Below are positions 5,187 to 28,696 of a DNA stretch of 32,000 nt, in pieces. A model generated the notes under the pieces. That model was given only the letters and a program-made list of their open reading frames with translations, did not search any database and was not told the origin of the DNA. Source of the DNA: an uncultured Bacilli bacterium (GTDB lineage Bacteria > Bacillota_I > Bacilli_A > RF39 > UBA660); the NCBI GenBank assembly GCA_947589105.1, contig CANQBL010000001.1, positions 71,146-103,145 of the forward strand, read 5' to 3'. A program made the translations under genes and the position numbers. Within the stretch, counting starts at the first letter, position 1. Every line of letters begins with the position of its first letter.

Positions 5187-5606
5187 CTACGTCTCAGATG
5201 TTTCTTCTACTCCTAAACAATAAGCAAATCTTATAAGTGTTTCTTTTTTCTTAATATAGTAATAACCTAAAGAAAATCCAAGATTGTTAGCTATAAATCT
5301 ATCATCATAATTATCTTCTTTATCAAGGTATGTCCAATATATGATTTTTCTTTCCTCAGTAGTTAATCTGTTAAAGGAGGATCTTACATAATTAATGAAA
5401 ACAATTCTATTTTTTAGCTCACAATCATCTTTTTGAAAATAAATATTATTATTTTGAGAAGAATTTAATTGTTCTAATAAAAAATCATTATTTACCTTTG
5501 AAGCAGACTCATTATCAACCGATAAATTGTAATAAATATATTTATTTATTAATTCTTTTACATTTTGTTTGGTCTTTGGCCAATTAACATTTATTGTTTT
5601 CATCAT
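5187..5606 (-). CDS. small ArpU-family / sigma-70 region-4-like transcriptional regulator (tentative)
   Basis: 139 aa. The C-terminal LTTEERKIIYWTYL...FIANNLGFSLGYYYIKKKETLIRFAYCLG resembles the HTH of phage-type ArpU late regulators. An AAGGGAGA SD precedes the ATG. It is the first gene of the same-strand cluster. Confidence 0.4.
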   Translation of the reverse strand: MMKTINVNWPKTKQNVKELINKYIYYNLSVDNESASKVNNDFLLEQLNSSQNNNIYFQKDDCELKNRIVFINYVRSSFNRLTTEERKIIYWTYLDKEDNYDDRFIANNLGFSLGYYYIKKKETLIRFAYCLGVEETSET

Positions 5607-8563: not shown

Positions 8564-8667
8564 TACTACCACCTTTTCTAATACTAATTTTAACATAAAA
8601 GATTATTTTTATTTCAAAAAAAGAAACATTAATCTATGCTATTATTAGTTCTTTTTTCTAGTTATAT

Positions 8668-8676
8668 ATTCTAACA
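8668..8676 (-). promoter_or_regulatory. candidate extended -10 element (TGTTAGAAT) for uvrA
   Basis: Minus strand reads TGTTAGAAT about 105 nt upstream of the uvrA ATG. The same TGNTAGAAT form recurs upstream of uvrB. The -35 is poor. Confidence 0.35.
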
Positions 8677-8712
8677 TACAAATTAAAAAATGATTATTAA
8701 AACATAACCATT

Positions 8713-9618: not shown

Positions 9619-9698
9619 GTTATCACTCCTTTGTAAATGTATATAATATCATACTAAAAATAAAAACACAACTAAAACTAGCTGTGTAAAATTTAACG

Positions 9699-11651: not shown

Positions 11652-11673
11652 AAATATTCTCCTTTGTAAATAT

Positions 11674-11702
11674 ATTCTAGCATTTATTATGTTTAAAAAC
11701 AA
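11674..11702 (-). promoter_or_regulatory. candidate sigma-A promoter of uvrB
   Basis: Minus strand: -35 TTGTTT (11702-11697), a 17-nt spacer including TGC, then -10 TAGAAT (11679-11674). It lies about 25 nt upstream of the uvrB ATG. Confidence 0.4.
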
Positions 11703-11708
11703 GAAAAC

Positions 11709-11737
11709 AAAAAAAGAAAATACCTAGTGGTATCTTC
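11709..11737 (-). terminator. intrinsic terminator after the M23 peptidase gene
   Basis: Minus strand: GAAGATACC-ACTA-GGTATTTTC, a 9-bp stem with one mismatch, followed by TTTTTTTG. Confidence 0.5.
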
Positions 11738-11740
11738 TTA

Positions 11741-12937
11741 TTACCTGTTATTATAACTTTGATTTAGTGGCGGAAATATTATTACGTCCCTTGGATTAAA
11801 CGTATGTTCTTCTAAACTGTCCCCTTTACCAGAAGAATAATATCTGGAATATCCTCTGTCTATATCTTTATACCTTCCAGTCGCAAGTCCTAAATGTAAA
11901 TGTGCTCCAAAGCATTTACCCGTACATCCAGATTTTGCAATTACAGTATCTGATGTTACAACTTGATATTTTTTAACTAATTGCTTTGATAAGTGGCAAT
12001 AAATTGAAGAATATTCCCGCCCATTTATATTATGCCAAACTACCAGTGATATTCCACATATTTCACCCGTATATCCTACTATTCCTGGTGCTACTGCATA
12101 TACTGAAGTTCCTGTTGGCATTGCTATATCTATAGCGAAGTGTTTATTAAATGAACCATTTAAAGTTCTATTTCCAAATTCACTAGATATCCTACCTGAC
12201 ACAGTTGGTCTTCTAAACGTTGTGCCTGGTGGCAGACTGTTACTACCAAATACCCTACTTGTACAAGCACTTATGGTATCAGATTCCTTACATCCTAAAG
12301 ATTTGTAATATTTAAGTTGCTCTTGCATTCCTTTAAGAACTTGTTCTTCGGATTCTCCTTCGGCATCAAGTTCACTACGTTTTTTACTAAGTACTATAAC
12401 CTGGGTTTCTTGTTCTTGTTTAAGTTTAACAAGTTCTTCTTTTTTAACAGCCATGTCTTTTTTAATTTTCTCATTTTCTGCAATCATATCATTCATTTTT
12501 TTAATTGTTTTTTTATTATATGAAGAAATTTGCTCAGTTATTGACAAACGATATATTAAATCAGTCATACTTTCTGCCCCCATTATGTACTCTAACATTG
12601 TTGATCCAGATGATGACACCTCATAATATTTCATTAAGTCCTTTATTTCTTCGTTTTTCTTTTGAATATCTTTTTCAAGCTGCTCGCTTTCTTTAGTTTT
12701 AGCCTCTATGGCTTCCTCAGTTTTTATTATATTTTGCTTTATTTCGGATATCTTCTTTTGAGTTTCGGCTAAATTTTGATTATTTATTGCTTTTTTTGTG
12801 TTTGTATCATTTAATTTTTTTTGTGCCGCATCAATTTCTTTTTGAATGTCACCTATTGTTTTTGCTTGTATCGTTATAATTGGAATGAACAAAGTTATTA
12901 TAAAAACTAATAAAACTTTTAATGTTTTTTTCATCAT
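11741..12937 (-). CDS. secreted coiled-coil M23 (LytM) peptidoglycan endopeptidase, probable FtsEX partner
   Basis: Signal peptide, a ~200-aa K/E-rich coiled coil, and intact M23 motifs HFAIDIA (HxxxD), YCHL and HLHLG. Its start overlaps the ftsX stop (ATGA at 12937-12934). Confidence 0.8.
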   Translation of the reverse strand: MMKKTLKVLLVFIITLFIPIITIQAKTIGDIQKEIDAAQKKLNDTNTKKAINNQNLAETQKKISEIKQNIIKTEEAIEAKTKESEQLEKDIQKKNEEIKDLMKYYEVSSSGSTMLEYIMGAESMTDLIYRLSITEQISSYNKKTIKKMNDMIAENEKIKKDMAVKKEELVKLKQEQETQVIVLSKKRSELDAEGESEEQVLKGMQEQLKYYKSLGCKESDTISACTSRVFGSNSLPPGTTFRRPTVSGRISSEFGNRTLNGSFNKHFAIDIAMPTGTSVYAVAPGIVGYTGEICGISLVVWHNINGREYSSIYCHLSKQLVKKYQVVTSDTVIAKSGCTGKCFGAHLHLGLATGRYKDIDRGYSRYYSSGKGDSLEEHTFNPRDVIIFPPLNQSYNNR

Positions 12938-13857
12938 ATTTTTAAATACTTCCTTACTGCATTATAACTACCAAACATACCAACAACAACACCTAATACT
13001 AACAAAGCTAATGATACAATATAAACAAACGGTTCTGCGGAAACTAGTTTTATAAATGGAGAAAATAACTGACCATTAAAATGACCATATAACACAGAGT
13101 ACCCATAAATGGTTAAACACATCGGTATTATAGCTCCTAAAAAGCCTAAGACAAAACCTTCTATAACAAATGGCTGTTTAATAGAGAAGTTTGATGCTCC
13201 AACTAATCTCATGATTTCTATTTCTCTTTTTCTTGAAAAAATTGTTATTTTTATGGTGTTAGTAATTAAGAATAAAGTTACTAATACTAATGCCACCATA
13301 GTTATTAGTATTCCTTTTTCTACGACACTAAAAACAGAAAGTAAACTTTCTACCATTCCCTGGCCATATTTAACATCTTTAACCAAGTTTAGTTTTCGAA
13401 TTTCTTTGGCAGTGTTAGATATTTTTTGAGTATCTTTTACTTTAACTAATAAAGTATCATATAGCGGATTCGTTTCGTCTGTCCAAGTATCAATTATGGC
13501 AGATAAAGAATCAGAAGTATCTTTCATCTCACTTGCTATTTCTTTTTTAGTTTGATGTGTTATGTTATCAATGTTATCTAATTTTTTAATCCTTTCGGTT
13601 AAATTATCTATTTGTTCTTTACTTGCAGCATTATCAATAAAGGTAACTATGGTAAAGTCTTGTTTAACCCTTTTAGTAACACTTTCCACATTATATGATA
13701 CGATAAGAGCAATTGCAACAATCAAAAGAGTTATAGTTATGCAAGATATTGAAGCAAGTGATAAACTAAGATTTCTTCCAACGCTTTTAAATCCATCTCT
13801 TATATTTCTAAAAATTATTCTAAGCCCCTTCATAATTACTATAACTTCCCTTCTCAT
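12934..13857 (-). CDS. ftsX: cell-division ABC transporter permease FtsX
   Basis: Four TM helices with a large first extracytoplasmic loop, directly downstream of ftsE and overlapping it. An alternative start is ATG 13833 (MKGLRIIFRN). Confidence 0.85.
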   Translation of the reverse strand: MRREVIVIMKGLRIIFRNIRDGFKSVGRNLSLSLASISCITITLLIVAIALIVSYNVESVTKRVKQDFTIVTFIDNAASKEQIDNLTERIKKLDNIDNITHQTKKEIASEMKDTSDSLSAIIDTWTDETNPLYDTLLVKVKDTQKISNTAKEIRKLNLVKDVKYGQGMVESLLSVFSVVEKGILITMVALVLVTLFLITNTIKITIFSRKREIEIMRLVGASNFSIKQPFVIEGFVLGFLGAIIPMCLTIYGYSVLYGHFNGQLFSPFIKLVSAEPFVYIVSLALLVLGVVVGMFGSYNAVRKYLKI

Positions 13858-15460: not shown

Positions 15461-16544
15461 TTAGTTTACCTTTCTTAGATAATTATATATAAATTCATCA
15501 ATATCACCGTCAAGTACCTTACTAACATTTGATGTTTCATAATTTGTTCTATGATCTTTTACCATTGAATAAGGATGCATTACATAACTTCTTATTTGCG
15601 ATCCAAACTCTATACCAGAATTATTTGCTTTTTGCTTACTTATTAATTCTTTTTGCTTTTTTTGCTCTATTTCATATAATTTACTTTTTAGTACCTTTAG
15701 CGCTGTTTCTTTATTTTTAATCTGACTTCTTCCATTTTGACATGTAACTACTATTCCTGTTTTTATATGAGTTATTCTAACTGCACTATCTGTAGTATTT
15801 ACACCCTGACCCCCCGGTCCACTACTTCTATATACATCTACTTTTATATCAGAATCTTTTAACTCTATATCTATATTATCATCAAATTCTGGAATAACAT
15901 CTACTGCTGCAAAAGAAGTATGTCTACGATTATTAGAATCAAAAGGTGATAATCTTACTAAGCGATGTACCCCTTTTTCACTTTTTAAATACCCATAAGC
16001 ATAATTTCCTTTTACTATACATGTAACACTTTTTATTCCAGCATCTTCACCTATTTGTTCATCTACAATTTCATATTTAAAATTCTTTTTATTAAAGTAT
16101 TTTAAATACATTCTAAGTAGCATCTGAGCCCAATCTTGACTTTCGGTCCCCCCTGCACCTGCATGAATCTCAAAAATGGCATCTTTAGAATCGTATTCTT
16201 TGCCTAAGAAAATTGTTACCTCATGATCTTTTATGGCTTTTATTGATTCGTTATAAATCAATTCACACTCTTCTAATTCTTTTTCGGTAAGTTTTGATAA
16301 ATCATACATATTTAGTAAATCTATATTTTCTTTTATTTTTAGAACAGGTTCTATAATTTCTTTTAAAAGATTCATTTGTTTTATAGTTTTTTCTGCCCTC
16401 TTAGTATCATTCCAAAATGAAGGACTATCATACTCTTTTTCTAATAACTTTATTTGACTAATTTTTTTATCTAAGTCAAAGAGCCCTCCACATATTATCT
16501 AATAACTCATTTAAAAGTTCTACATCTTTACGTGTTATTTCCAT
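15461..16544 (-). CDS. prfB: peptide chain release factor 2, requiring a programmed +1 frameshift
   Basis: Frame 0 from ATG 16544 reads MEITRKDVELLNELLDNMWRAL and then TGA (16478-16476). The +1 frame continues DLDKKISQIKLLEKEYDSPSFWND... into the track ORF 15461..16375, which carries SPF and GGQ (SGPGGQGVNTTDSAVR). Confidence 0.93.
16475..16489 (-). promoter_or_regulatory. prfB autoregulatory +1 frameshift site
   Basis: Minus strand reads GGAGGG CTC TTT GAC. This is an SD-like GGAGGG 3 nt upstream of the slippery CUU UGA C, the classic RF2 recoding signal. Confidence 0.9.
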
Positions 16545-16561
16545 ATAATCACCTATTTAAA

Positions 16562-16570
16562 ATTATAGCA
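16562..16570 (-). promoter_or_regulatory. candidate extended -10 (TGCTATAAT) giving prfB its own promoter
   Basis: Minus strand reads TGCTATAAT about 18 nt upstream of the prfB ATG, followed by an AGGTGA SD. Confidence 0.4.
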
Positions 16571-16725
16571 TAATTTTATAATTAAATAAATGGAAGTATG
16601 CTAAAAAAATATTGGAATTATTTTCCTTTATTTTAAATAATTCAAATAACATAAATAGTTTATTATATATAACAATAATAGTAGCAACTGATAAACCCAA
16701 AAAATAGATTATCAACTATAAAAAT

Positions 16726-16747
16726 AAAGTTCCTGAGTAGGAACTTT
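16726..16747. terminator. bidirectional hairpin terminator downstream of the C39-like gene
   Basis: AAAGTTCC-TGAGTA-GGAACTTT (8-bp stem) with T-rich runs on both strands. Confidence 0.45.
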
Positions 16748-16968
16748 TTATTTGTATTAAAACTATATTTTTAAATATAATTGTTCTTTTGCCTATCATA
16801 ATATTTTTATGACAAGAATTTAAAAATTTTATTTTAAAGTACTTATATTTGAAATATCCAAATAACTATTCTATTAAAACTGTTTTAATATGATTAAAAA
16901 ATTTAATTTTTACATATATAATTTTTAATTTCAAAATAAGAAAAAAAGAGGAAGATCTACAACACTAT

Positions 16969-17574
16969 TTAATTTACTTTTTTTATAAATAAAAAATTAA
17001 AAGATTCCTTTCTTCCATAAATTTCTCTAATTAAACTTTCATAGGAAAATGCAACGCCAATTTGATCATCACCTATTTTATTTGGATTAATAACATAAAA
17101 ATTATTGTTTTCATCTATATCACTAACTACTAGGTAATGACCATAATGGGAAAAAGTACCTTCATAGTTTTCATAATTATCTGCTGGTCCAACATGAATA
17201 ATAGCCATATTGCCATTTCTAATATTATCAATAATTCTCTTTTTTTGTTCTTCAGGATTATTAAAATTAATTTTTATTATCTCATATTCAATTTTTATTT
17301 TATCTTCTTTAATAAGTCTATCTAAGCAATATATTAAACCTTTAGAGCTTATACCTTTTGATTTTAAATAGATATTATCAAAATTTCCATTTTTATCAAC
17401 AATTATCTTTTTTACTATTTCAATGGGATTATACTTTATCCCATAATTTGAAAGTATAATAGCTATAGAAGTCGGTCCACAACCCCTATGCGGAATATCC
17501 CAATCTCCTAATTTATCCCTAAATTCATTTATAGTATAATCTAATTGCCTATACCTAATTCTATTTTGATTCAT
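16969..17574 (-). CDS. C39-like (papain-fold) cysteine peptidase domain protein, cytoplasmic
   Basis: 201 aa. HRGCGPTSIAIILSNYG matches the C39_2-type catalytic Cys motif, and GHYLVVSDID supplies the downstream His. There is no signal peptide or TM helix. An AGGAGA SD precedes the start. Confidence 0.5.
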   Translation of the reverse strand: MNQNRIRYRQLDYTINEFRDKLGDWDIPHRGCGPTSIAIILSNYGIKYNPIEIVKKIIVDKNGNFDNIYLKSKGISSKGLIYCLDRLIKEDKIKIEYEIIKINFNNPEEQKKRIIDNIRNGNMAIIHVGPADNYENYEGTFSHYGHYLVVSDIDENNNFYVINPNKIGDDQIGVAFSYESLIREIYGRKESFNFLFIKKVN

Positions 17575-17604
17575 TTTCTATCTCCTAAATAAAATTATGG
17601 AAAT

Positions 17605-17678
17605 ATGTTGAAAATATTTTTTTCGTAAAGTTTCATCATTTTCCAAAAAATGATGAAAAATGAGGAAATTTTCAACAT
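17605..17678. repeat. nested imperfect palindrome in a cassette spacer
   Basis: Outer 11-bp arms are ATGTTGAAAAT (17605-17615) and ATTTTCAACAT (17668-17678). Inner perfect 12-bp arms are TTTCATCATTTT (17631-17642) and AAAATGATGAAA (17647-17658), with a 4-nt loop. Word pair TGATGAA/TGAGGAA starts at 17651 and 17661. Confidence 0.8.
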
Positions 17679-17803
17679 TTGTTTACCAACTTTAATTTTT
17701 TTAATCTTATTCATATTTATGAACACAATACCTTATCAAAAATAAATATTATTTTGATAATCGTTTAAATCTTTCTTTTAATATTTCTCCTTCAGCCTAT
17801 ATT

Positions 17804-17813
17804 TTATAAAACC
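17804..17813 (-). repeat. TTATAAAACC core decamer, possibly a third and heavily degraded junction
   Basis: The same 10-mer follows the secA stop (22156-22165) and the SEC-C remnant at 20079-20088. Here the flanking tail-coding sequence is only weakly recognisable. Confidence 0.3.
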
Positions 17814-17920
17814 ATATAAATTATAAGCATTTCTAAAAGATTCTTAAATATGATTTTATATATTTTTTAATTATTGTTGAATATGTATCTTTATATAATT
17901 CTCGCATTTGTTATATAAAA

Positions 17921-18499
17921 TTACATATTTTCTTCTATGTCTTTTATAATATTATTTAAACTTTTAATTCTATCTTTAGAAGTATCATAATACTTAATTT
18001 TGTATTTAGGGCATTCTCTTTTTAGCATCTCGTTTGCAGAATACCAATCAATAGCATGTTTTTTTAAATATTTCTTAGAAAGACCAAAAGTCCAATCCTT
18101 TTCTGTATCGTGATTAATACAAAGTTCTACCATTTCATCAACATTTAGATTCCCTAATCCAAGACACACAACAATAGTCTCTTTTAAGTTTATCATCTTA
18201 CTAACTATTTTAGGATGTAATTGCCCACTTTCTAATATATATCCATAGTTTTTTTTATCTTTTTTAATAGAAGAGTCAAAAAATTCTAATAGAGTTCTTT
18301 GAAAAAACTCTCCGTGCTCAAACTCCTTTTGTTTTTCTACATTATTTCTGTAATATTCTTCTTTATTATTTGCTCTTATCATAGCCCATTTTAAAGAATC
18401 ACTGTGTATTAAGTTATAATTATTATATTTGTCTTTTAGCATTTCACTTAACGTTGTTTTTCCTGCTCTGCCTATTCCCATTATTAATATATTTTTCAT
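17921..18499 (-). CDS. P-loop NTPase / small-molecule or nucleotide kinase-like protein
   Basis: 192 aa with N-terminal Walker A GIGRAGKTT. Size and layout resemble the adenylate-kinase/AAA_18 fold. No closer assignment is possible. Confidence 0.5.
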   Translation of the reverse strand: MKNILIMGIGRAGKTTLSEMLKDKYNNYNLIHSDSLKWAMIRANNKEEYYRNNVEKQKEFEHGEFFQRTLLEFFDSSIKKDKKNYGYILESGQLHPKIVSKMINLKETIVVCLGLGNLNVDEMVELCINHDTEKDWTFGLSKKYLKKHAIDWYSANEMLKRECPKYKIKYYDTSKDRIKSLNNIIKDIEENM

Positions 18500-18597
18500 A
18501 ATTATCTTACCCTTCTATTTATTTTGACACAAATTTATAAAACTTTCAAAAATACAATTCCTATTATTACTTTCTTTAGTTTTTATCTCCAATTCTT

Positions 18598-19806
18598 TTA
18601 AACAGATTTATATAATCTAATACTTATTATTATTTCTATAATTGATAATACAAATAATATTACTACTACAGTAATCATTGGATTATTTAATAAAATAATT
18701 GTAAAACCTAAGCTCATTGTTGCTCTTACAATTTTTCTTGATAATTCCATTGTTGTCAATAAAGATTGTTGTCCTTCTTTTCCGACATTTCTTAACGCTA
18801 AATCTTGCATATATACTTTAAATGGATCTCTAATAAATAATATAATTATATACCCAAAACTCATAATACTAAATTTTAGTATTATAGAGTTTCTAATAAA
18901 ATATCCTAATATCATAAATATAATAGATGCACAAAGCAATGCCGGTAAAATAACCCCGACCTTTTCCTTATATTTATTGTGTATTTTATTAAAAGCTATA
19001 TTAGAAATAACTCTTACAATTCGAGAAATAGATAATATACCACCAATTACTAAAGCGGTTTTTTCTACGTTAAAGTTTAAAAGCAATTCCTGTTGTATAA
19101 ATAATTTTCCATTAAATTGGCCAGAATTTACAATAGGATAAAATAGACCATAAGAAATGATTAATAATATTATTAATCTATTATATCTTATCTTTTTACT
19201 TGTTTTAAGTTTTATTTCTTCTATTTTAATTTTGTCATAATTAGAAAAATCAATTATATAAAATGACAATATAAAACATATTAAACAAAAGGCAATACAA
19301 CACAACATTGGTAAATAATTATTAAAATTAAACATTATACTTACAATAAATGATATAATCATTGTTACTGTTGCATATATAGTATTAGATTTTGTTTTTA
19401 TTTTTATATATTCATTATTTCTATTTTGCAATTCAAGATTATTTTTTAATATAGCATTTGACATATTTTGAAATGTAAGTGCAATTTCATAAATAATCTT
19501 TCCCAAAGCAATAACTAGATAGTTTTGGCCAAATGTTAATAATATACTTGATATTAATAATGTTAAAGAACCTAACCTAACTGATTTTGTATTTCCTATT
19601 TTTTTAATTATTTTTAATAGTGGAACTTGCAATAATATACAAGCTATTAATGAAACAGTAGTCAAAGAAACTATCTGTGATGAATTAAAATTTTTTACAA
19701 CAGTTAAAAACAATGTATCTATTGCTACCCAAAATAATAAATCACTCGATAAACCTGTATATAGAGGAAATATTTTATTAAACTTCTTCATTCCATCTTG
19801 CTTCAT
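18598..19806 (-). CDS. MFS-type transporter
   Basis: 402 aa with about 12 predicted TM helices in two halves. It lies 98 nt upstream of the P-loop gene with no intervening hairpin, so the two are probably an operon. Confidence 0.7.
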   Translation of the reverse strand: MKQDGMKKFNKIFPLYTGLSSDLLFWVAIDTLFLTVVKNFNSSQIVSLTTVSLIACILLQVPLLKIIKKIGNTKSVRLGSLTLLISSILLTFGQNYLVIALGKIIYEIALTFQNMSNAILKNNLELQNRNNEYIKIKTKSNTIYATVTMIISFIVSIMFNFNNYLPMLCCIAFCLICFILSFYIIDFSNYDKIKIEEIKLKTSKKIRYNRLIILLIISYGLFYPIVNSGQFNGKLFIQQELLLNFNVEKTALVIGGILSISRIVRVISNIAFNKIHNKYKEKVGVILPALLCASIIFMILGYFIRNSIILKFSIMSFGYIIILFIRDPFKVYMQDLALRNVGKEGQQSLLTTMELSRKIVRATMSLGFTIILLNNPMITVVVILFVLSIIEIIISIRLYKSV

Positions 19807-19967
19807 TTATTTTTATCTTCCTTACTTTTTTTCTTATTTTTTTAAATTCATTGCTTTATCTATTATTACCCTTCTTGTTCTTTATTTTTTTAGCATTGTT
19901 TATAATTTTAATTGCTTTAATTGTATCTTCAAATGTTATTTCTTGAAAATATAGTTAATGGAACATC

Positions 19968-20003
19968 AGTATGTATAGTATTATAGGTATTATCCGTATT
20001 ATC
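19968..20003 (-). repeat. degenerate 9-bp tandem repeat block (GATAATACS / TATAATACT type)
   Basis: Minus strand reads GATAATACGGATAATACCTATAATACTATACATACT. It is related to the ATAAATACY blocks at 20147-20183, 20954-20996 and 21022-21050. Confidence 0.6.
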
Positions 20004-20010
20004 TTTATTT

Positions 20011-20061
20011 CCAAAATGAGGAAAAAAGAGGAAAAATTTAGACTTTTATGTCCCCTTTTTT
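20011..20061. repeat. phased A-tract word repeat and imperfect palindrome in a cassette spacer
   Basis: TGAGGAAAAA (20017) and AGAGGAAAAA (20027) are 10 bp apart. AAAAAAGAGGAAAAA faces TTTTATGTCCCCTTTTTT as an imperfect inverted repeat. TTCCAAAATGAGGAAA resembles 17641-17667. Confidence 0.6.
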
Positions 20062-20089
20062 TAGAATTTGCAATCTCTTATAAAACCTG

Positions 20090-20199
20090 CTATTTACCAT
20101 AGCAATTTTTATACTTTTTACCACTGACACAAGTTGAGCCTACTCCAGTATTTATAGTATTTATGGTATTTGTATTATTATTGTTACTATAAATATTTT
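20090..20199 (-). repeat. junction module copy b: decayed SEC-C tail copy preceded by a 9-bp tandem block and AAAATATTTATAGTAA
   Basis: Minus strand translates ENIYSNNNNTNTINTINTGVGSTCVSGKKYKNCYGK then TAG (20092-20090). Of the 42 nt ending at the stop, 35 are identical to the secA tail (22167-22208). No start codon. Confidence 0.8.
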
Positions 20200-20215
20200 C
20201 TCATCTGCAAACAAT

Positions 20216-20689
20216 TTACAAACATTGTTTGCATCCGTTTACTAATTTAATTATATCATCTATCATTATATCAATATCATTTTCTAGGCATATTTTTGCT
20301 TTTTCTAAAGAATTATAAGCATTGGTAAGTATAACTTTATCATATACTATGTTATATTTATTTAACCAATCAAATGTCATTTTATAAGGATCAGAATATT
20401 CGCCATTATCTCTACCACTTATAATATATATTTCATTTCCTTCTTCTTTTAATTTTCTTATATATTCTGGTGCATTTTCTAAAACATTAAGACTTTTAGC
20501 AATTCTTTCAATATTATCATGATAATATTGCTGTTCTTCATCTTTTGGCCAGTTGAACATATCTCTTATATAAACATTATTTTTGATTATACCATTATTT
20601 CCTAATTCTTTATCATGATTAATATAATCATTTAATAATACTTCATTAAAATTTGATAAAACATTATCAATATCAATACCTATACGCAT
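20216..20689 (-). CDS. HAD-superfamily 5'(3')-deoxyribonucleotidase-like protein, C-terminus apparently replaced
   Basis: HAD motif I is DIDNVL, followed by ISGR and motif IV MIDD. The ORF ends only 12 codons after motif IV, inside the TGCAAAC word repeat. An AGAGGTGAG SD precedes the start. Confidence 0.6.
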   Translation of the reverse strand: MRIGIDIDNVLSNFNEVLLNDYINHDKELGNNGIIKNNVYIRDMFNWPKDEEQQYYHDNIERIAKSLNVLENAPEYIRKLKEEGNEIYIISGRDNGEYSDPYKMTFDWLNKYNIVYDKVILTNAYNSLEKAKICLENDIDIMIDDIIKLVNGCKQCL

Positions 20690-20726
20690 ATCTCACCTCT
20701 TTAGAAATATTAAGATATTTAAATAA

Positions 20727-20814
20727 AAATGTTTGCATTAGAATATTCCTTAATTTATAAGGTATTATTCTCATTTTTGCAAACATTTAACTTTTTTGCA
20801 AACAAATTGCAAAC
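20727..20814. repeat. imperfect palindrome plus phased TGCAAAC word repeats in a cassette spacer
   Basis: Perfect 11-bp arms are AAATGTTTGCA (20727-20737) and TGCAAACATTT (20778-20788), with inner arms GAATATTCCTTA / TAAGGTATTATTC around TTATAA. TGCAAAC also starts at 20797 and 20808. Confidence 0.8.
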
Positions 20815-20896
20815 AAAATGCATTATTTTTCAACTTTTATAGTAATTCTTACTTCTTGTATTGTCTTTTGAATCCTTTATTTATAAGGGATAGATG

Positions 20897-21067
20897 TTAT
20901 TTACCACAACAGTTCTTGTATTTCTTACCACTTCCACAAGTTCCCCACTTTTGAGTATATATAGTATTTATAGTATTACCATTATTATCGGTATTTCAAG
21001 GAATTTTAGGTCTGGTAACAAATAGTATTTATGGTATTTATAGTATTATGTTTACTATAAATATTTT
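20897..21067 (-). repeat. junction module copy a: SEC-C tail copy preceded by two 9-bp tandem blocks and AAAATATTTATAGTAA
   Basis: Minus strand translates NTDNNGNTINTIYTQKWGTCGSGKKYKNCCGK then TAA (20899-20897). Of the last 42 nt, 33 are identical to the secA tail, and all 9 differences fall at third codon positions. No start codon; a frame break separates the two tandem blocks. Confidence 0.85.
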
Positions 21068-21200
21068 ATAAAATGGGAACAAATTGGGAACATTGTTATC
21101 ATTCGCCTATAAGTATATTTTAGCACAAATAATTAGTTAATAACAACTTTTTTATTTAGCTTATTACACAATTGTAGTTTTGTATTATAAAGTAGTTAAT

Positions 21201-21803
21201 TTAAAATTTTTTTTCGTATATAAATGCTAGTTCTTTATTAACTTTTCCTAATTTTCCATATTCTTTATTTTCAATAATAGTTTGATAAACCTTTTTGCAT
21301 CCAACGCTTTCATATACTCCATAACTACATGATTCATCAGTTAATATTTGAAGATTTTTCATATTGTCTTTTTTTGCTAAATCAAATACATCTAACAATA
21401 ATTTTTTGCCTATACCTCTTCCCCTATATTGTTTATCCAAAATCAACATTGATAATTCACCATCAAAATAATCTCTCATATTATCAGGAACATAATCATA
21501 ATTTTTTTCATATTCCTTTAAAGCATTAACATCTTTTATTTCTTTACTTTTATATAATAGCTTTTTAACAAAAGCATAAAATTTTTTCTTTAATATATGC
21601 TTTTTTGAGTTCCATTTTGAATATCCTGCAAACCCCAACAATTTATTATTTTCCTTATAATAAACAAATTGTTCTGATTCTTCTAATATTTCTAATAGAT
21701 AAATCCATGCACATAATCTTCGACTGGCACCACTTTCAACTTCGCCTAAATCCCACTCATTTTCTAATAATTCTACTGCTCTCTTCATATCATTAAGTTT
21801 CAT
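21201..21803 (-). CDS. GNAT-family N-acetyltransferase
   Basis: ILDKQYRGRGIGKKLLLDVFDLAKK matches the acetyl-CoA motif. The likely start is ATG 21803 (MKLNDMKRAVELL) after a GGTGA SD; the track start at 21815 is TTG. Confidence 0.75.
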   Translation of the reverse strand: MKLNDMKRAVELLENEWDLGEVESGASRRLCAWIYLLEILEESEQFVYYKENNKLLGFAGYSKWNSKKHILKKKFYAFVKKLLYKSKEIKDVNALKEYEKNYDYVPDNMRDYFDGELSMLILDKQYRGRGIGKKLLLDVFDLAKKDNMKNLQILTDESCSYGVYESVGCKKVYQTIIENKEYGKLGKVNKELAFIYEKKF

Positions 21804-21969
21804 TTTTATCACCAATTTTAATATTTACTTTTTTAATATTATATCATGAAAAAACAATGCTATAAATTTTTTTGTTAAATTTTATTGTCTTTTATAACTT
21901 TATTTCTTATTTATACTTAATAAATCAAAAAACTTTACGGTAACACAAAAATATACTTAATTACATAAA

Positions 21970-21990
21970 AAATCAGCACAATGCTGATTT
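21970..21990 (-). terminator. intrinsic terminator downstream of secA
   Basis: AAATCAGCA-CAA-TGCTGATTT, a 9-bp perfect stem, followed by a T-run on the minus strand. Confidence 0.65.
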
Positions 21991-22003
21991 ACAATGTTAT
22001 CAT

Positions 22004-22100
22004 AAAATGTTCCCATTGGGAAACCCTTGATTTTGCGGGGCTTTTTGGGCATTTTTGGGAACAAAATGAATTTTTTGTGCACATTTTGAGCACATTTTTA
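22004..22100. repeat. phased A/T-tract word repeats immediately 3' of secA
   Basis: Minus strand reads AAAATGTGCTC AAAATGTGCAC AAAAAATTCATTTTGTTCCC AAAAATGCCC AAAAAGCCCCGC AAAATCAAGGGTTTCCCAATGGGAAC. On the plus strand, T-tract starts at 22042, 22052, 22071, 22084 and 22095. GTTCCCA/TGGGAAC words start at 22009, 22017 and 22056. Confidence 0.75.
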
Positions 22101-22166
22101 TAGTTTTAGGGGTTTTCTTTATGATTTTTTCAAAACCAAATACCTCGTAAACCCTTATAAAACCTA

Positions 22167-24677
22167 CTACTTTCCACAACAATTTTTATACTTTTTCCCA
22201 CTTCCACATGGACATGGATCATTACGACCTATCTTTTTTTCTTTTTTAATAGTTCTATTTTTAGACACTTTTTCTAATCCAGTATTAGCATTTCCTTTAA
22301 CTTGTTTTACTTCAAGGTTTTGCCTTATTTCTGCCTTTAAAAGATACAAAGTTATATCTTTATTTATTTTATCAAGCATATTATCAAATAGTTCAAAGCC
22401 TTCTCTAATATAAGCCTGCAAAGGATCTTCATTTGCATACCCTCTTAAAGAAACACTTTCTCTTAAATGATCCATTGTATTTATATGCTCCATCCAATGA
22501 TTATCAATAACTCTAAGCGTTATTGCTTTTTCAAAATCATTTCTTATTTCTAAAGGAAGTTTATCTATTTTATTTTGATATTCTTTAATAGCTTTTTCCT
22601 CTATTAACTCAATTATTTCATTTGTTTCTTTATTTAAAATTTCAGATAATTTTAAATTTGAAGTCCTTAACAATTTTTCATTAACATATTCAACAATCTC
22701 ATTACATTCACTTTCTAATATTATACCATGTTCATTCATGTGATTATGTACAACACTAGAAATATGTTCCTTTATTGTATTTATAACCATTTCATGAATG
22801 TCATCATTATCCAATATTTCATTTCTTTTTGAATACATTATTTCACGATGTTTTCCCATTACATCATCATATTGAAGTAAATGTTTACGAGCATCAAAAT
22901 TATTACCTTCTACTCTTTTTTGGGCCGTTTCAACGGAATGAGTAATAGTTTTGCTCCTCATATTTCTTTGACTATCTAAACCAGCCATTTCTAAAATACT
23001 TTTAAATCTATCTGTTCCAAATCTAACCATTAAGTCATCTTCAAACGACACAAAAAATTGACTATATCCTGGATCCCCTTGTCGACCAGAACGACCTCTT
23101 AATTGGTTATCAATACGTCTTGATTCATGTCTTTCAGTTCCTATTACGCAAAGACCACCAAGTTCTTTAACTCCTTGTCCAAGTTTAATATCAGTACCAC
23201 GTCCTGCCATATTAGTTGCAATAGTAACAGCGCCTTTTTCTCCTGCATGAGCGATAATTTCAGCTTCTCTTGCATGGTTCTTGGCATTTAATGTTTCATG
23301 TTTAATATGAGCTTTTTTAAGTAAACTACTTATCAATTCGTTTGTTTCAATTGCTATAGTACCTACTAAAACGGGTTGTCCTTTTTCATGCCTTCTTTTT
23401 ATTTCTGCAACTATAGCTTTATATTTTTCTTCTTTTGTTGAGTAAATCAAATCAGCCTCATCTTGCCTAATTACCGGCTTATTAGTTGGAATTTCAATAA
23501 CAAACATATTATATATGCTTCTAAATTCTTCTTCTTCTGTTTTAGCTGTACCAGTCATACCAGATAATTTTTCATACATTCTAAAGTAATTTTGAAAAGT
23601 AATTGTAGCAAGAGTCTTTGTTTCTTCTTGTATCTCTACGTTCTCTTTAGCCTCTATAGCTTGATGTAATCCATCTGAAAAAGCTCTGCCAGGCATAAGC
23701 CTACCAGTAAATTGATCAACTATTATTATTTTACCTTCTTGTACAACATAATCAACATCATTATGCATAGTATAATTTGCCTTTAAAGCCTGATTTATGT
23801 GATGAACTAAAGCCGAATGTTCTATATCATAAAGATTATTAAGTCTAAAATAATGTTCTGCTTTTTCTGTTCCTTGATCAGTTAAGGTTATATCTCTTGT
23901 TTTTTCATCTATAATATAATCTTCATTTTCTTTTAAAGTTTTTACATATTTATCCGCATCTTTATAAAGATTTGCAGATTTCATTACTCCTCCAGAAATA
24001 ATTAAAGGGGTTCTTGCCTCATCTATCAATACCGAATCAACTTCATCTATTATTGCAAAATTAAGAGGTCTTTGTACTCTATCTTCTTTTCTTACTACCA
24101 TATTATCTCTTAAGTAATCAAATCCTAACTCATTATTGGTAGAATACAAAATATCAGCTTTATAAGCTTCTTGTTTTTCACTTGGAGACATCTCCCTTAA
24201 ATTAACCGCTACACTTAATCCTAAATAATTATAAATTTGTCCCATCCATTTAGCATCACGACTCGCTAAATATTCATTTACCGTTACTACATGAACTCCT
24301 TTACCTGTTAAAGCGTTTAAGTATGCTGGCATTACGCAAGTTAAAGTTTTACCTTCTCCAGTTTTCATTTCTGAAATATTACCAAAATGAATAGCTAAAG
24401 CACCCAAAACCTGAACATAAAACGGTTTTTCACCAATAACACGATATGCAGCTTCCCTTACTGTGGCAAAAGCATCTGGTATTATTTGATCTAAACTTTC
24501 TCCATCAGCTAATCGTTTTTTTAATTTTTCACTCATTGCCTGAAGAGTTTTATCAGACATTTTAGAATATTTATCTTCTAGTTCGAAAATTTCGTTTGCT
24601 ATTAATTTAAATTTTTCTAATTCCTTATATTCATGATCAAAAATCTTTTTTAACATTTTCAACATAATTTCAATCAT
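22167..24677 (-). CDS. secA: preprotein translocase ATPase SecA
   Basis: 836-aa ORF with the DEAD-like motor (MKTGEGKT, DEVDSVLIDEARTPLIIS) and a C-terminal SEC-C zinc motif CPCGSGKKYKNCCGK. The real start is probably ATG 24665 or 24656 (MLKKIFD), because the GGAG SD abuts the first ATG. Confidence 0.97.
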   Translation of the reverse strand: MIEIMLKMLKKIFDHEYKELEKFKLIANEIFELEDKYSKMSDKTLQAMSEKLKKRLADGESLDQIIPDAFATVREAAYRVIGEKPFYVQVLGALAIHFGNISEMKTGEGKTLTCVMPAYLNALTGKGVHVVTVNEYLASRDAKWMGQIYNYLGLSVAVNLREMSPSEKQEAYKADILYSTNNELGFDYLRDNMVVRKEDRVQRPLNFAIIDEVDSVLIDEARTPLIISGGVMKSANLYKDADKYVKTLKENEDYIIDEKTRDITLTDQGTEKAEHYFRLNNLYDIEHSALVHHINQALKANYTMHNDVDYVVQEGKIIIVDQFTGRLMPGRAFSDGLHQAIEAKENVEIQEETKTLATITFQNYFRMYEKLSGMTGTAKTEEEEFRSIYNMFVIEIPTNKPVIRQDEADLIYSTKEEKYKAIVAEIKRRHEKGQPVLVGTIAIETNELISSLLKKAHIKHETLNAKNHAREAEIIAHAGEKGAVTIATNMAGRGTDIKLGQGVKELGGLCVIGTERHESRRIDNQLRGRSGRQGDPGYSQFFVSFEDDLMVRFGTDRFKSILEMAGLDSQRNMRSKTITHSVETAQKRVEGNNFDARKHLLQYDDVMGKHREIMYSKRNEILDNDDIHEMVINTIKEHISSVVHNHMNEHGIILESECNEIVEYVNEKLLRTSNLKLSEILNKETNEIIELIEEKAIKEYQNKIDKLPLEIRNDFEKAITLRVIDNHWMEHINTMDHLRESVSLRGYANEDPLQAYIREGFELFDNMLDKINKDITLYLLKAEIRQNLEVKQVKGNANTGLEKVSKNRTIKKEKKIGRNDPCPCGSGKKYKNCCGK

Positions 24678-25871: not shown

Positions 25872-26483
25872 ATGAAAAAACGTTTTCTAAATTCAATTAG
25901 AAATTCTATTAAAAAGCAATACCCTAATTATTCAAAAGATAAAATTGATGAAATAATGTACGGTGTCGAAGGAATATACTTAATGATAACAAAAACTATA
26001 ATAATATTTTTATTAGCTTTTATATTAGGTATATTTAAAGAACTTTTATATTTACTTATTGCTTTTAATTTTATTAGGCTTTTTGCATTTGGTATGCATG
26101 CCAACAAAAGTATTATATGTCTTGTTTTTTCAACTTTATTATTTATAGGCGGTGCATTTTTATGTAAATATGTAACACTAAATAAATTAGTTTTATACAT
26201 ATTTTACTTATTAGCTTTTATAATTATTACTATTTTTTCTCCTGCAGATACGGTAAAAAGACCCCTAATAAATAAGAAAAAAAGAAATAAATTTAAATTT
26301 TTATCAATTATAACAACATTAATTTATTTTATATTAACTCTATTTATTAAAAACAACTTAATTATTAATAGTCTTATATTTGGTCTTATCATAGAATGCA
26401 TTTTAATATCACCTTTGACTTATAAAATTTTTAAAATGCCATATAAAAACTATGTTAATTATGGTTTAAACACTTTTAATTAA
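25872..26483 (+). CDS. agrB: AgrB-family autoinducing-peptide processing endopeptidase
   Basis: 203-aa polytopic membrane protein. FIRLFAFGMHANKSIIC has His and Cys spaced 7 residues apart, as in the S. aureus AgrB catalytic pair H77/C84. A basic loop KRPLINKKKRNK is also present. Confidence 0.85.
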   Translation: MKKRFLNSIRNSIKKQYPNYSKDKIDEIMYGVEGIYLMITKTIIIFLLAFILGIFKELLYLLIAFNFIRLFAFGMHANKSIICLVFSTLLFIGGAFLCKYVTLNKLVLYIFYLLAFIIITIFSPADTVKRPLINKKKRNKFKFLSIITTLIYFILTLFIKNNLIINSLIFGLIIECILISPLTYKIFKMPYKNYVNYGLNTFN

Positions 26484-26519
26484 GTGATTAAATAAATTTT
26501 AATAAGGAGGAATAATAAA

Positions 26520-26645
26520 ATGAAAGCAATGTTAATTTCTATTGTTTCAGCATTAGGAGCTTTAGTTGCAGCTTCTGCAACTAGCGGATGTGTTATAGTA
26601 TGGGTTGATGAACCAACAATGCCTAAAGCAATGTTAGAAAAGTAA
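26520..26645 (+). CDS. agrD: AgrD-type autoinducing-peptide precursor (41 aa; below the ORF-track size cut-off)
   Basis: An AAGGAGG SD (26504-26510) precedes the ATG at 26520. Translation is MKAMLISIVSALGALVAASATSGCVIVWVDEPTMPKAMLEK: an amphipathic leader, a single Cys, and the acidic DExxxPK tail typical of AgrD. It lies 36 nt after agrB. Confidence 0.8.
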   Translation: MKAMLISIVSALGALVAASATSGCVIVWVDEPTMPKAMLEK

Positions 26646-26672
26646 AAGAAAAAGCTTTTATTGCTTTTTCTT
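26646..26672. terminator. bidirectional terminator shared by agrBD and the convergent kinase gene
   Basis: AAGAAAAAGC-TTTTATT-GCTTTTTCTT (10-bp stem) with T-runs on both sides. It overlaps the last codons of the kinase ORF. Confidence 0.6.
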
Positions 26673-27962
26673 TTTTATTTGTATAATTAAATTTGTTATA
26701 AAATAATCGTTGTCCAACTTATTTTCTACGTTCAAGCATTCATTTTCATTTACTATGTCATTAACTAATCTCAGTCCATAACCATGTCCATTTCCTTTTG
26801 TTGAATGACCAGAACCTAATTTAGACATATCTATTTTTCCTTTATATGTATTTGAAATGCTAAAAATAACTTTAGAAGATTCTTTTATTGAAGAAATAGT
26901 AATTTTTTTATTTTTACTTTCTTTACTTGCATCAATTGCATTATCTAATAACACACCTAATATTTTAGTAATATTTTTATACATTATCGTATCTAAAGTC
27001 TTTAATTTTGTTTTTACTCCATATTCAACATTAATTTCATATTTGATATTTTCATCATCCATCATTGATAATTTATAATATAAAAGTCCTTTTATACCTC
27101 CATCAGGAAAATTATTAAGTTGGCTTATTAAATAACTACTATGTGTTTTTTTAGTATCATCTACGATTGAATCTAAATACTCAATTAGTTTAGGTGACTT
27201 CATTTGAGCATAACCACGAATAACCATCAACTGGTTTCTAAACTCATGATTTGCTTTTCCTTGATCCGTAATTATTTTTTCGTATTTAGTAACATAATTA
27301 AGCATCTGTTTATTTTGTTCATTTAACTTATCATATTTTGATTCATTTTTTATTATTACGGTTAATATTGCAACTATACCAATAATAAATAATATATTAA
27401 CATAATAATTTGATTTAAGTATTAATTCTAAACCATTTTTTGATACTATTAAATATACAACAAATATAAATATGTATAAATAATTTATTAATTTTGAATT
27501 TTTATCAAACATATTATTTATTTTATAAATAATCTTAATAAAAAAAGGAATATATATTAAACAAATAGATAATAGTGATATTAAAATATTTGCCAAAAGA
27601 TTATAAAGATTATTATTAACAATATCAACAGAATTAATTCCAAAAAGTACTAAAAATAAAGTTACTATTATTTCACTAATTGACATTATCATCTCTAAAT
27701 TGAAAGAATATAAAATTAATTTTTTATCCTTTATTTTTAAAAAGAAGTATATAATTAAAGAAGTTATTATTATAAATAAAATAAATCTAATTTGGTTTGG
27801 AATAAATAAAAAACATATCGAGCAATAAATACACATTGGAATTAGTAATTTTATTTTTTCTTTTAAAGCTTTAATTTGTATTTGTCTACAAATAATAATT
27901 GTCGCAGCCGTGCCCTGAAATAATGAAACTATTATACTTATAATTATTTTTTCTACACTCAT
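26658..27962 (-). CDS. AgrC/HPK10-type sensor histidine kinase
   Basis: 434 aa. The N-terminal sensor has about 6-7 TM helices. H-box HEFRNQLMVIRGY, N-box LLDNAIDA, G-box GHGYGL. The start overlaps the regulator stop (ATGA at 27962-27959). Confidence 0.85.
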   Translation of the reverse strand: MSVEKIIISIIVSLFQGTAATIIICRQIQIKALKEKIKLLIPMCIYCSICFLFIPNQIRFILFIIITSLIIYFFLKIKDKKLILYSFNLEMIMSISEIIVTLFLVLFGINSVDIVNNNLYNLLANILISLLSICLIYIPFFIKIIYKINNMFDKNSKLINYLYIFIFVVYLIVSKNGLELILKSNYYVNILFIIGIVAILTVIIKNESKYDKLNEQNKQMLNYVTKYEKIITDQGKANHEFRNQLMVIRGYAQMKSPKLIEYLDSIVDDTKKTHSSYLISQLNNFPDGGIKGLLYYKLSMMDDENIKYEINVEYGVKTKLKTLDTIMYKNITKILGVLLDNAIDASKESKNKKITISSIKESSKVIFSISNTYKGKIDMSKLGSGHSTKGNGHGYGLRLVNDIVNENECLNVENKLDNDYFITNLIIQIKKKKQ

Positions 27963-28669
27963 AAAATCTCCCTTAATTTCCTTTTATAATTTTTGGATAA
28001 ATAGTCTATACTTTTATCACAATTAAAATAAATTATACTATTTTTAAAATCAACACTTTCTATTTTATCAATATTAATATAACAAGCCCTATGTGTTTGA
28101 TGAAACCTAGAATCTAATTTTTTTATTATGTTTAATAAAGTGTCATTTACTGGATATTCATCTTCTTCGGTTACTATTGTTGTTTTATTACTTTCGCTAT
28201 CTTTATAAATATATAATATATTATCTAAATTTACGTGATGCAGTTCTTTATTACATCTAAAACTTAAAACTTTTTTTAATTCTATTTTGTTAATTACCAT
28301 TTTTAACGTATCAGATAATCTTTCTTCATAATTATCAAATTTTGAGATGAAATCAAATATTAAAAGTTTTTGTTTTAAAACATTAAGTTCTAATTCATCA
28401 TGAGAAGTTAATATGATTATTATACTATCCCAATCTACTTTTCTAATTTCTCTTGCTATTTCTATTCCGGTTTTGTTAGGTAACTCCAAATCCAAAATAT
28501 AAATTTTTATATCAAGAGGGGTGTTTATTATGTTTTTTAATTTAATGCTATATTTATCAAAAGAATGAATGTTATAGCTAAAATCATATGGCATAGCTAC
28601 TTTTTTAATAATAGCATTATTTAAATCAGTAACATATTTATTATCATCACAAAGTATAAAATTAATCAT
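27959..28669 (-). CDS. LytTR-family response regulator (AgrA-like)
   Basis: The receiver domain begins MINFILCDDN and is followed by a C-terminal LytTR domain (...FHQTHRACYINIDKIESVD). The likely start is ATG 28669 after a GGGTGA SD; the track start at 28681 is GTG. Confidence 0.88.
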   Translation of the reverse strand: MINFILCDDNKYVTDLNNAIIKKVAMPYDFSYNIHSFDKYSIKLKNIINTPLDIKIYILDLELPNKTGIEIAREIRKVDWDSIIIILTSHDELELNVLKQKLLIFDFISKFDNYEERLSDTLKMVINKIELKKVLSFRCNKELHHVNLDNILYIYKDSESNKTTIVTEEDEYPVNDTLLNIIKKLDSRFHQTHRACYINIDKIESVDFKNSIIYFNCDKSIDYLSKNYKRKLREIL

Positions 28670-28696
28670 ACTATCACCCACTTAATTATAACATAA

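Follow-up and report, generated by a model that had tools for sequence, protein, structure and literature searches.

The DNA analysed here is a 32-kb window (the whole stretch of 32,000 nucleotides, to which unprefixed positions refer) from an uncultured Bacilli bacterium, in which part of the gap between the genes secA and prfB is occupied by a series of short gene cassettes, delimited by copies of the secA 3' end. We consider it likely, with a probability of roughly 0.85, that the secA 3' end is the attachment site (attB) of integrative elements moved by lambda-type tyrosine integrases and that the window holds an integrase-less tandem array of such elements. This array consists of one intact cassette with a GNAT acetyltransferase gene (cassette 1), one deletion derivative with an NT5C/HAD gene (cassette 2) and one truncated remnant, with no integrase. 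In the following, the sequence after a tail is called P' arm, and the sequence at the far end of a unit, preceding the next core, P arm. A first-pass annotation of this DNA had suggested an att-like core in the secA 3' end, with arriving elements bringing a replacement tail; the gene sets of relatives, the breakpoints between arrays, the integrases and the transfer of the GNAT cassette all support this idea.

Displaced copies of the secA 3' end

The secA gene lies at 22167-24677 on the minus strand (836 aa from the first ATG in the open reading frame (ORF) list, 832 aa in public contigs), its product matching protein P0001 at 100% and containing the SecA Pfam domains including SEC-C. Its final 42 nt, TGTGGAAGTGGGAAAAAGTATAAAAATTGTTGTGGAAAGTAG, encode the peptide CGSGKKYKNCCGK followed by the stop. 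As annotated before, this end recurs twice on the same strand: tail copy a (20897-20938; TGTGG plus the tail of cassette 2) matches it at 33/42 nt (nhmmer E=9.4e-11), and tail copy b (20090-20131; TGTGT plus the decaying tail CVSGKKYKNCYGK and a stop) at 35/42 nt (nhmmer E=1.6e-9). By chance, the best 42-mer match reached 24-28 nt (30 Markov shuffles, whole window, both strands). All nine differences between copy a and secA fall on third codon positions (9/9), leaving peptide and stop unchanged, exactly as claimed. For copy b the earlier match count holds, while the three non-synonymous changes ascribed to it amount to two amino-acid changes, G->V (two nucleotide changes within one codon) and C->Y, next to a G->T change in the core. 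A common origin of both copies apart from secA had also been proposed and is not borne out by the pairwise identities, as a and b share 32 of the 42 nt, fewer than secA and b (35) or secA and a (33). Neither a fourth tail copy in the window nor any further tail in 16376-19950 was detected by the 42-mer match search and an nhmmer tail profile.

Both copies lie outside ORFs, the nearest in-frame stop being located 32 (a) or 36 (b) codons upstream with no ATG, GTG or TTG in between. Downstream, the previously noticed common motif was recovered: GGTTTTATAAG stands 3' of the stop of secA (22154) and of copy b (20077), with the variant CCCTTATAAATAAAGGA following copy a; the post-stop motifs read GGTTTTATAAGGGTTTACGAGG behind the secA tail and, in related form, GGTTTTATAAGAGATTGC behind copy b. 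On the minus strand, the sequence upstream of copies a and b is AT-rich, non-coding, unlike secA and common to both; in it, a short-word block is followed by AAATATTTATAGTAA and then by 9-bp-periodic ATAAATAC repeats. Copy a presumably represents the SecA tail before the arrival of cassette 1, and copy b is the oldest displaced tail in the window array. An inverted repeat was additionally observed across the stop codon (20085-20115 and 22162-22192, minus strand), formed by the tail codons TATAAAAAT and the post-stop sequence GTTTTATAAG; it provides a stem in the single-stranded DNA (ssDNA) fold of junction b and may act as a core-type binding site, as an RNA hairpin or not at all.

The secA-prfB gap in related genomes

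In distant Firmicutes, prfB follows secA at a distance of ~0.4 kb. In the present lineage the gap measures 6-7 kb, and relatives with 86-90% identical SecA carry wholly different gene sets in it, the gene blocks being separated by extra SEC-C tails. In the gap of L082, genes for a C5 methylase, an HNH endonuclease and YjcQ come first and NT5C-nucleoside hydrolase and HD genes second; its last tail is frameshifted and lies right before prfB. In L087, genes for a KilA-N protein, an integrase and a 1068-aa protein lie between the secA tail and a tail copy, and the gap of L088 contains HNH, HD and two helix-turn-helix (HTH) protein genes. The same arrangement was found in L001, a metagenome-assembled genome (MAG) with 69% SecA identity. 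Five genes occupy the gap of the window, encoding the GNAT protein, a truncated NT5C-type HAD phosphatase, an MFS transporter, a P-loop protein and a C39-like peptidase, of which the last three are absent from the same gap in the relatives with 86-90% identical SecA. Restriction-modification and HNH genes, toxin-antitoxin pairs, nucleotidases, acetyltransferases, Fic proteins and kinases are among the cargo of the gap in the arrays. The possibility, raised in the first-pass annotation, that the copies are the ends of intact SEC-C genes in relatives did not hold, since no intact SEC-C ORF containing them occurs in the relatives examined. A close SecA homolog (87% identical) is labelled "Candidatus Aphodocola sp." by its source.

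Two side observations concern these arrays. In L095, which has the same SecA as L088, another mobile element is located within the array after the HTH187 gene (7786-13227), encoding an N6/N4 methylase, a TraG/VirD4-like coupling protein and a 611-aa large serine recombinase; the secA hotspot is also used, or interrupted, by such unrelated elements. Furthermore, contig ends are frequent inside arrays (L096, L097), and many cassette genes are found on ~0.7-2-kb contigs, among them the GNAT homolog contigs P0241, P0247, P0253 and others. Assembly breaks caused by the repeated tails and arms would be consistent with this picture, as would strain heterogeneity, and cassette diversity is probably under-sampled in MAGs.

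Unit boundaries at a conserved 7-bp block

The position of the boundaries became apparent from pairs of arrays. L088 and L093 share the same SecA and are identical from 12,400 to ...CCATGTGG (13766), diverging from the next base on, initially by synonymous tail changes and then into unrelated sequence. A Pkinase-Int-Fic element stands behind secA in L098 and behind another integrase element in L101, its copies being identical from CATGTGG onward. Based on these two breakpoints, the exchange point is located within C-A/T-TGTGG (C-W-TGTGG), and the tail belongs to the downstream unit; the exact cleavage positions would lie within or at this block.

We compiled 103 unique att sites, 15 of them attached to secA and 88 internal. 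The block showed C at position -2 in 101/103 sites, A or T at -1 in 102/103, TGTG in 103/103 and the final G in 99/103, with the following four bases being freely variable. At the 88 internal sites the upstream bases are non-coding and C-W is still conserved; thus, this conservation cannot be due to coding constraint. The window itself contains three cores, so that its units are flanked by direct repeats with a short common core. Insertion polymorphism at the core, which the first-pass annotation had made a touchstone of its proposal, is abundant (L088/L093, L098/L101, window/L109, and a 1,067-bp cassette in seven contexts). As a candidate for the overlap, the 7 nt after TGTGG (NNNNGGN) were considered as array-matched; this idea holds in the first two sites of the window, in L087 and in L001, fails in L088, L098, L082 and L109, and was dropped for C-W-TGTGG.

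Tyrosine integrases in related arrays

Related arrays carry integrases that are intact, frameshifted or preserved as remnants. The L087 integrase, composed of Arm-DNA-bind_4 and Phage_integrase domains, is disrupted by one frameshift in a T7/A8 run. After repair, 1,748 homologs were retrieved at E<=1e-20, the closest being 60-67% identical and including intact proteins of 409-417 aa. In two other lineages, the intact integrases P0126 (413 aa) and P0123 (417 aa), both with PF14657 and PF00589, are encoded one or two genes after secA. Alignment of P0126 with solved tyrosine recombinases, including XerA (5hxy), matched the catalytic motifs, namely the box I Arg, YxxR with YDLRG replacing HxLRH, LGH and the Tyr. 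Recombinase-bearing elements at the secA 3' end, which the first-pass annotation had proposed to look for, were found: in several lineages, tyrosine integrases with an arm-binding domain sit within such elements directly downstream of secA. No relatives of P0126 were found in IMG/VR viral contigs, which give no sign of the elements being phages. For the integrase element of L104, no attR tail was detected beyond a 17-nt trace with E=3.

Horizontal movement of integrase-less cassettes

The GNAT cassette is also present in L109-L112, L109 carrying a NUDIX cassette beyond its second core. Between the window and L109, a span of 1,270 bp is identical at 83-100% of the nucleotides; the values drop to 49-66% in the final 800 nt of secA and to 31-63% past the second core. 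At protein level, the SecA proteins are 64.8% identical and the GNAT proteins 90%. As the identity to L109 covers tail and cassette and does not extend to upstream secA, the secA tail is itself cassette-borne; the first-pass annotation, supported on the att core, had taken it for a resident tail distinct from those of the cassettes. In a distant lineage, a GNAT gene with 88.5% identity is the second gene after a 914-aa secA (L106, 6560-7780).

The second example is an integrase-less cassette of 1,067 bp encoding a 194-aa protein, which is 95-99% identical in seven arrays (L001, L143, L144, L145, L153, L155, L169). The 600 nt upstream of it are 37-66% identical, with the exception of the closest pair, L155 vs L169 (78.5%), whose SecA proteins are both 85-86% identical to that of the window. 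It is the first unit after secA in four arrays and stands behind another unit in at least two. Taken together, these comparisons show that integrase-less cassettes move horizontally as discrete units. In all seven arrays, the cassette starts with a cargo-less unit of ~195 bp (L001, 12497-12693), which comprises a post-stop motif, TGTGCACA words, 9-mers and a decayed tail (FEFGKNYKQRCSK plus stop); it resembles a P' arm fused directly to a P arm, possibly a nested 'empty' cassette.

In a scan of metagenome contigs, the P-arm/core junction was detected at 68 loci, many of them in human and animal gut samples. Units enclosed by two tails (n=35 unique) have a median length of 1.6 kb and range from 0.72 to 10.5 kb. 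The majority (29/35) are devoid of an integrase homolog, and in the other 6/35 the homologs are incomplete or broken up, among them stubs of 50 aa and genes with internal deletions. Intact integrases occur in L098 and, next to one arm, in larger elements that extend beyond the retrieved DNA at their other end.

Tail selection and arm architecture

Within 15 internal tails, sites vary at 3/13 first, 4/13 second and 12/13 third codon positions, and pairwise codon differences sum up to 608 synonymous vs 98 non-synonymous ones. This pattern would fit a need for the tail to function once fused to secA. The alignment of 8 P arms from 6 arrays revealed a common layout. P' and P arms share GC-containing 8-mers at a mean of 4.2 within a cassette vs 0.82 between cassettes, a value reached in 0/5000 permutations. 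Elements with the same top word also have more similar integrase N-termini (72.8% vs 62.3%, permutation p=0.003), a link that is weak at n=13 and confounded by the shared ancestry of integrase and arms. This link hints at the cassette-specific words in both arms being arm-type integrase sites.

Architecture of the window array

All features of the array are encoded on the minus strand. Cassette 1 (20934-22203; 1,270 bp, the identity span to L109) does not encode a recombinase and shows no trace of a former integrase. Read 5'->3', it is composed of the replacement secA tail, P' arm, terminator, promoter, GNAT gene, P arm and the next TGTGG. Its boundary to secA is junction 1, CCATGTGGA (22202-22210), containing C-W-TGTGG as candidate overlap or crossover region. 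The replacement tail (22167-22203; ..SGKKYKNCCGK plus stop) is the current SecA C-terminus, the last 11 secA codons and the stop being part of the cassette. In L109-L112, this tail and the adjoining TAGTAGG(T)TTTATAAGGG travel with the GNAT cassette. The P' arm (21967-22166) contains the post-stop motif GGTTTTATAAGGGTTTACGAGG, which is conserved in other cassettes, and carries the words TGTGCTCA (22087-22094), TGTGCACA (22076-22083), TGTTCCCA (22056-22063) and TGGGAACA (22008-22015) as well as a terminator hairpin (21970-21990) with a T-run behind it. A terminator scan of 19700-22300 returned four terminator-like sites, this hairpin among them, all within this arm, compared with 0.4 expected. 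The best promoter-like site of the region precedes the GNAT gene (21838-21866; TTTATA, 17 nt, TG-extended TATAAT; 10/12 with TG) and is 100% conserved in L109. The gene itself (21201-21803) codes for a GNAT N-acetyltransferase of 200 aa from its ATG (Pfam Acetyltransf_1, E=2.8e-10), with 88-98% identical homologs, many of them on ~1-kb contigs. The P arm of 174 nt (20939-21112) contains, in this order, the word block ATGATAACAATGTTCCCAATTTGTTCCCA, AAATATTTATAGTAA, two 9-bp-periodic ATAAATAC sets, CCTTGAAATACC and ...GGAACT before the core. A 61-nt direct duplication in it (D2 of the repeat families D1-D5, copies from 20954 and 21015; 20954-21075) doubles the 9-mer set, of which the P arm of the NT5C cassette has a single one.

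Cassette 2 (20127-20933; 807 bp, no recombinase) is located between cores a and b and shares a closely matching right end with the integrase-bearing element of L087. Its truncated cargo gene (20216-20689) encodes 157 aa, covering positions 4-127 of 180 of the Pfam NT5C profile. This ORF represents the N-terminal ~150 aa of a protein of 475 aa that combines NT5C with a nucleoside hydrolase; the homology to L082 (16168-17595; 64% identity over 153 aa) stops at ..MIDD and is followed by P-arm words. The P arm (20132-20238), consisting of the palindromic words TGCAAACAATGTTTGTAAATTGTTTGCA, then AAATATTTATAGTAA, then 9-mers, is devoid of the middle ~60 nt found in other P arms. Cassette 2 is an internal-deletion derivative. 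The remnant of a third unit (19950-20089) retains the post-stop GGTTTTATAAG, the words GGGGACA/TTCCTC and the first P-arm 9-mer set (19968-20011, family D1), ending without core or tail. Words agree within a unit and differ between units: TGTTCCCA and TGGGAACA are found on both sides of the GNAT gene, and TGTTTGCA and TGCAAACA in both arms flanking the NT5C/HAD gene. When 19700-22400 was scanned against Rfam, isrK was the only hit and stayed below threshold (21.3 bits vs a gathering score of 50); the arms are no RNA known to this database.

The rest of the gap (16969-19806) is taken up by the genes for the MFS transporter (18598-19806), the P-loop kinase-like protein (17921-18499) and the C39-like peptidase (16969-17574), assigned by Pfam. 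No att sites were recognisable around these genes, which may be older decayed insertions.

Proposed mechanism and alternative explanations

In the mechanism we propose, lambda-type tyrosine integrases with an N-terminal arm-binding domain would catalyse integration at attB in the secA 3' end, recombination taking place in or at the 7-bp block C-W-TGTGG, which spans the Cys-Gly codons of the SEC-C zinc-finger motif. As integration would sever the last 11 secA codons, an element has to bring these codons and a stop directly 3' of the block. The tail would be followed by the P' arm, which includes the terminator in the GNAT cassette, and the far end would be a P arm of ~100-170 nt ending in C-W-TGTGG. 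Each arrival would fuse its own tail to secA and displace the previous one downstream; thereby, repeated arrivals would build up tandem units separated by displaced tails. Decay would lead from an integrase-bearing element through integrase remnants, deletions and truncated cargo to an integrase-less unit. Integrase-less cassettes would presumably be mobilised in trans, or in cis together with a neighbour, and the near-identical cassettes in divergent hosts may be taken as an indirect sign of mobilisation by, or together with, an integrase-bearing neighbour.

Several results weigh against this reading. The 32-kb window contains no recombinase ORF, judged from the ORF list and the Pfam assignment of the gap genes, and a clean full-length integrase was found in 0/35 of the two-tail metagenome cassettes. 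Neither an excised circle nor a restored empty site was seen for any cassette in the assemblies. A public protein 100% identical to the window SecA occurs on five contigs with the same gene order and one and the same array, i.e., without polymorphism at that level and without a sign of current activity in this strain. The GNAT gene of L106 is found without type-A arms and with no detectable tail in front; units of another kind may also carry GNAT cargo. Behind TGTGG, the next 7 nt read AAGTGGG in the window and GTCTGGT in L109, both flanks being conserved, which makes any exact placement of the exchange points tentative. To these has to be added the weakness of the link between words and integrase N-termini described above.

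The strongest competitor, which we regard as unlikely, assumes that the units are inert remnants and that arrays differ by homologous recombination or gene conversion after transformation or conjugation, using tails and arms, with no site-specific step for integrase-less units. It would draw on the tens of nucleotides common to the arms and tails of different cassettes (in L088, cassettes 1 and 3 have identical tails and near-identical P' arms), on the P-arm blocks conserved between cassettes, and on a window that has no integrase and an array that is identical in all five contigs with identical SecA. The GNAT cassette of the window and L109 is difficult to accommodate, as the shared sequence on its left is limited to ~17 nt of secA coding sequence and the preceding 800 nt, at 49-66%, are a poor substrate for homologous recombination. 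In addition, breakpoints coincide at one 7-bp block in independent comparisons, this block is conserved where it is non-coding, and the 1,067-bp cassette occurs behind unrelated left neighbours. Even less probable is an integron-like platform, in which a host recombinase captures promoterless cassettes via folded single-stranded attC-like sites with the secA tail acting as attI. Reminiscent of such a system are the palindromic arm words and the arrays themselves, whose recombinase-free cassettes are short (median 1.6 kb; 29/35 without integrase homolog), co-oriented and mostly limited to a single gene, and junction b folds as ssDNA better than shuffles by its local palindromes (z=-4.2). Junction a does not (z=-0.98), and the sites are long, asymmetric, two-armed and attP-like. 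Moreover, no recombinase gene is located beside secA in the window or in L081 (+/-10 kb), recombinases, where they occur, sit inside the elements and are of the lambda type with an arm-binding domain, and the GNAT cassette has its own promoter and terminator.

Finally, the copies could have arisen by local duplication of the secA end, or could be the ends of other SEC-C-motif genes that became pseudogenes, in either case without a role in mobility; to this we attribute a negligible probability. SEC-C motifs (Pfam PF02810) do occur terminally in many unrelated small proteins. This reading is at odds with the synonymous differences of copy a, with flanks unrelated to secA, with an upstream sequence that is a conserved non-coding arm common to cassettes in other genomes, and with the lack of an intact SEC-C ORF holding the copies in any relative. 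It is contradicted by the finding that the copies mark the ends of horizontally moving units, as seen for the GNAT and the 1,067-bp cassettes.

A further-reaching version of the proposed mechanism would be a true cassette system instead of debris from decayed islands, with a large population of miniature units actively exchanged among gut Bacilli and Clostridia-like lineages and mobilised in trans by a set of arm-binding tyrosine integrases, which we regard as conceivable and rather doubtful. With similar reserve, the units of such a system might have a replacement SecA zinc-finger tail at one end, a P arm of ~170 nt at the other and, in between, a terminator, a promoter and one cargo gene. 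An equally tentative assumption is that specificity would be conferred by the 8-mer words in both arms (TGNNNNCA; e.g., TGCAAACA, TGTCCACA, TGGCGACA, TGCACACA), matched to the N-terminal domain of the integrase. If true, this would constitute a functional analogue of integrons built on lambda-type recombination.

Other features of the window

On the minus strand, prfB shows the canonical programmed +1 frameshift site (GGAGGG, then CTT TGA C, at 16475-16489), by which the gene is divided into a short upstream frame (~16480-16550) and the main ORF (15461-16375). An agr-like quorum-sensing locus is located just upstream of cspA-hpf-secA (25872-28681). It comprises AgrB (25872-26483) and an AgrD-like 41-aa peptide (...SGCVIVW...; 26520-26645) on the plus strand, and an AgrC-like histidine kinase (26658-27962) and a LytTR response regulator (27959-28681) on the minus strand; the length of the AgrC-like kinase is 429-445 aa among relatives. 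At 3299-5606 on the minus strand, the gene of a radical-SAM/SPASM-type protein (450 aa) overlaps that of a second GNAT (175 aa); the next gene encodes a protein of 139 aa. These genes could form a peptide-modification cluster, unrelated to the secA array.

Significance and comparison with known systems

With the zinc-binding SEC-C motif at the secA 3' end, an integration hotspot is recognised in widespread uncultured gut bacteria ("Candidatus Aphodocola" and relatives). It would account for the 6-7 kb of strain-specific genes that separate secA here from prfB, otherwise its close neighbour. An essential protein would routinely receive its C-terminus from mobile DNA, and as a consequence the repeats would diverge only synonymously. 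In practical terms, the tail repeat offers a simple marker to delimit accessory cassettes in metagenome assemblies, and the small two-armed sites together with the integrases are candidate tools for site-specific integration in low-GC Firmicutes.

The closest precedent are the cis-mobilizable elements (CIMEs) of the ICESt1/ICESt3 family at the fda 3' end of Streptococcus thermophilus, for which a model of integration, decay to a CIME keeping attL and attR, and accretion of a new arrival has been published (PMC5704250). As proposed for the present case, the integrase is of the tyrosine type, its target is a housekeeping gene's 3' end, and the element restores that end (PMC5704250). secA as an attachment site has 0 occurrences in that publication (PMC5704250) and was not found in literature searches. 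Like CIMEs, the integrase-less derivatives retain both att sites and new arrivals beside them result in tandem arrays; specifically, the GNAT and NT5C cassettes have kept both arms and both cores and are free of integration and transfer genes. In contrast to CIMEs derived from integrative and conjugative or integrative and mobilizable elements, the target is secA, the hosts are uncultured gut Bacilli, and the small units carry no conjugation or mobilisation genes. Moreover, integrase-less units are dominant here, miniature (0.7-2 kb, often with one gene) and 95-99% identical in divergent hosts; for these reasons, they look like an actively spreading population rather than local debris.

The staphylococcal cassette chromosome (SCC) elements at rlmH (orfX) also include pseudo-SCC units without ccr and composite arrays. 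They likewise use the 3' end of an essential or conserved gene as attB, with direct repeats of that end between tandem units, some of which are recombinase-less. SCC depends on large serine recombinases (CcrAB/CcrC) acting on short, simple sites, whereas tyrosine integrases with arm-binding domains and long two-armed sites are found here. The target is secA instead of rlmH, the serine recombinase of L095 belonging to a separate TraG-carrying insertion.

Tycheposons of Prochlorococcus are tyrosine-recombinase elements that integrate repeatedly at one site, pushing older ones deeper into the island and leaving behind partial target copies and fragmented integrases (bioRxiv 10.1101/2020.12.28.424599). 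They differ in their tRNA target, which has no protein tail to preserve, and in their marine cyanobacterial hosts, and no architecture of tail, terminator, promoter, gene and P arm is described for them. The islands at ssrA (tmRNA) in Dehalococcoides are reported to be likewise site-specific and tandem, inserted at a single-copy housekeeping gene with direct repeats of its 3' end in between (PMC3146451). They are larger and target an RNA gene. Integrons share the arrays of short, co-oriented, recombinase-less cassettes moving as units. In contrast to them, there is no intI/attI/Pc platform and no consistent attC-like folding here, the GNAT cassette has its own promoter, and the element-borne recombinases are of another tyrosine type; the window array is not an integron. 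The mechanism itself is established for other targets, and what is new here is the secA target, the host range and the degree of miniaturisation.

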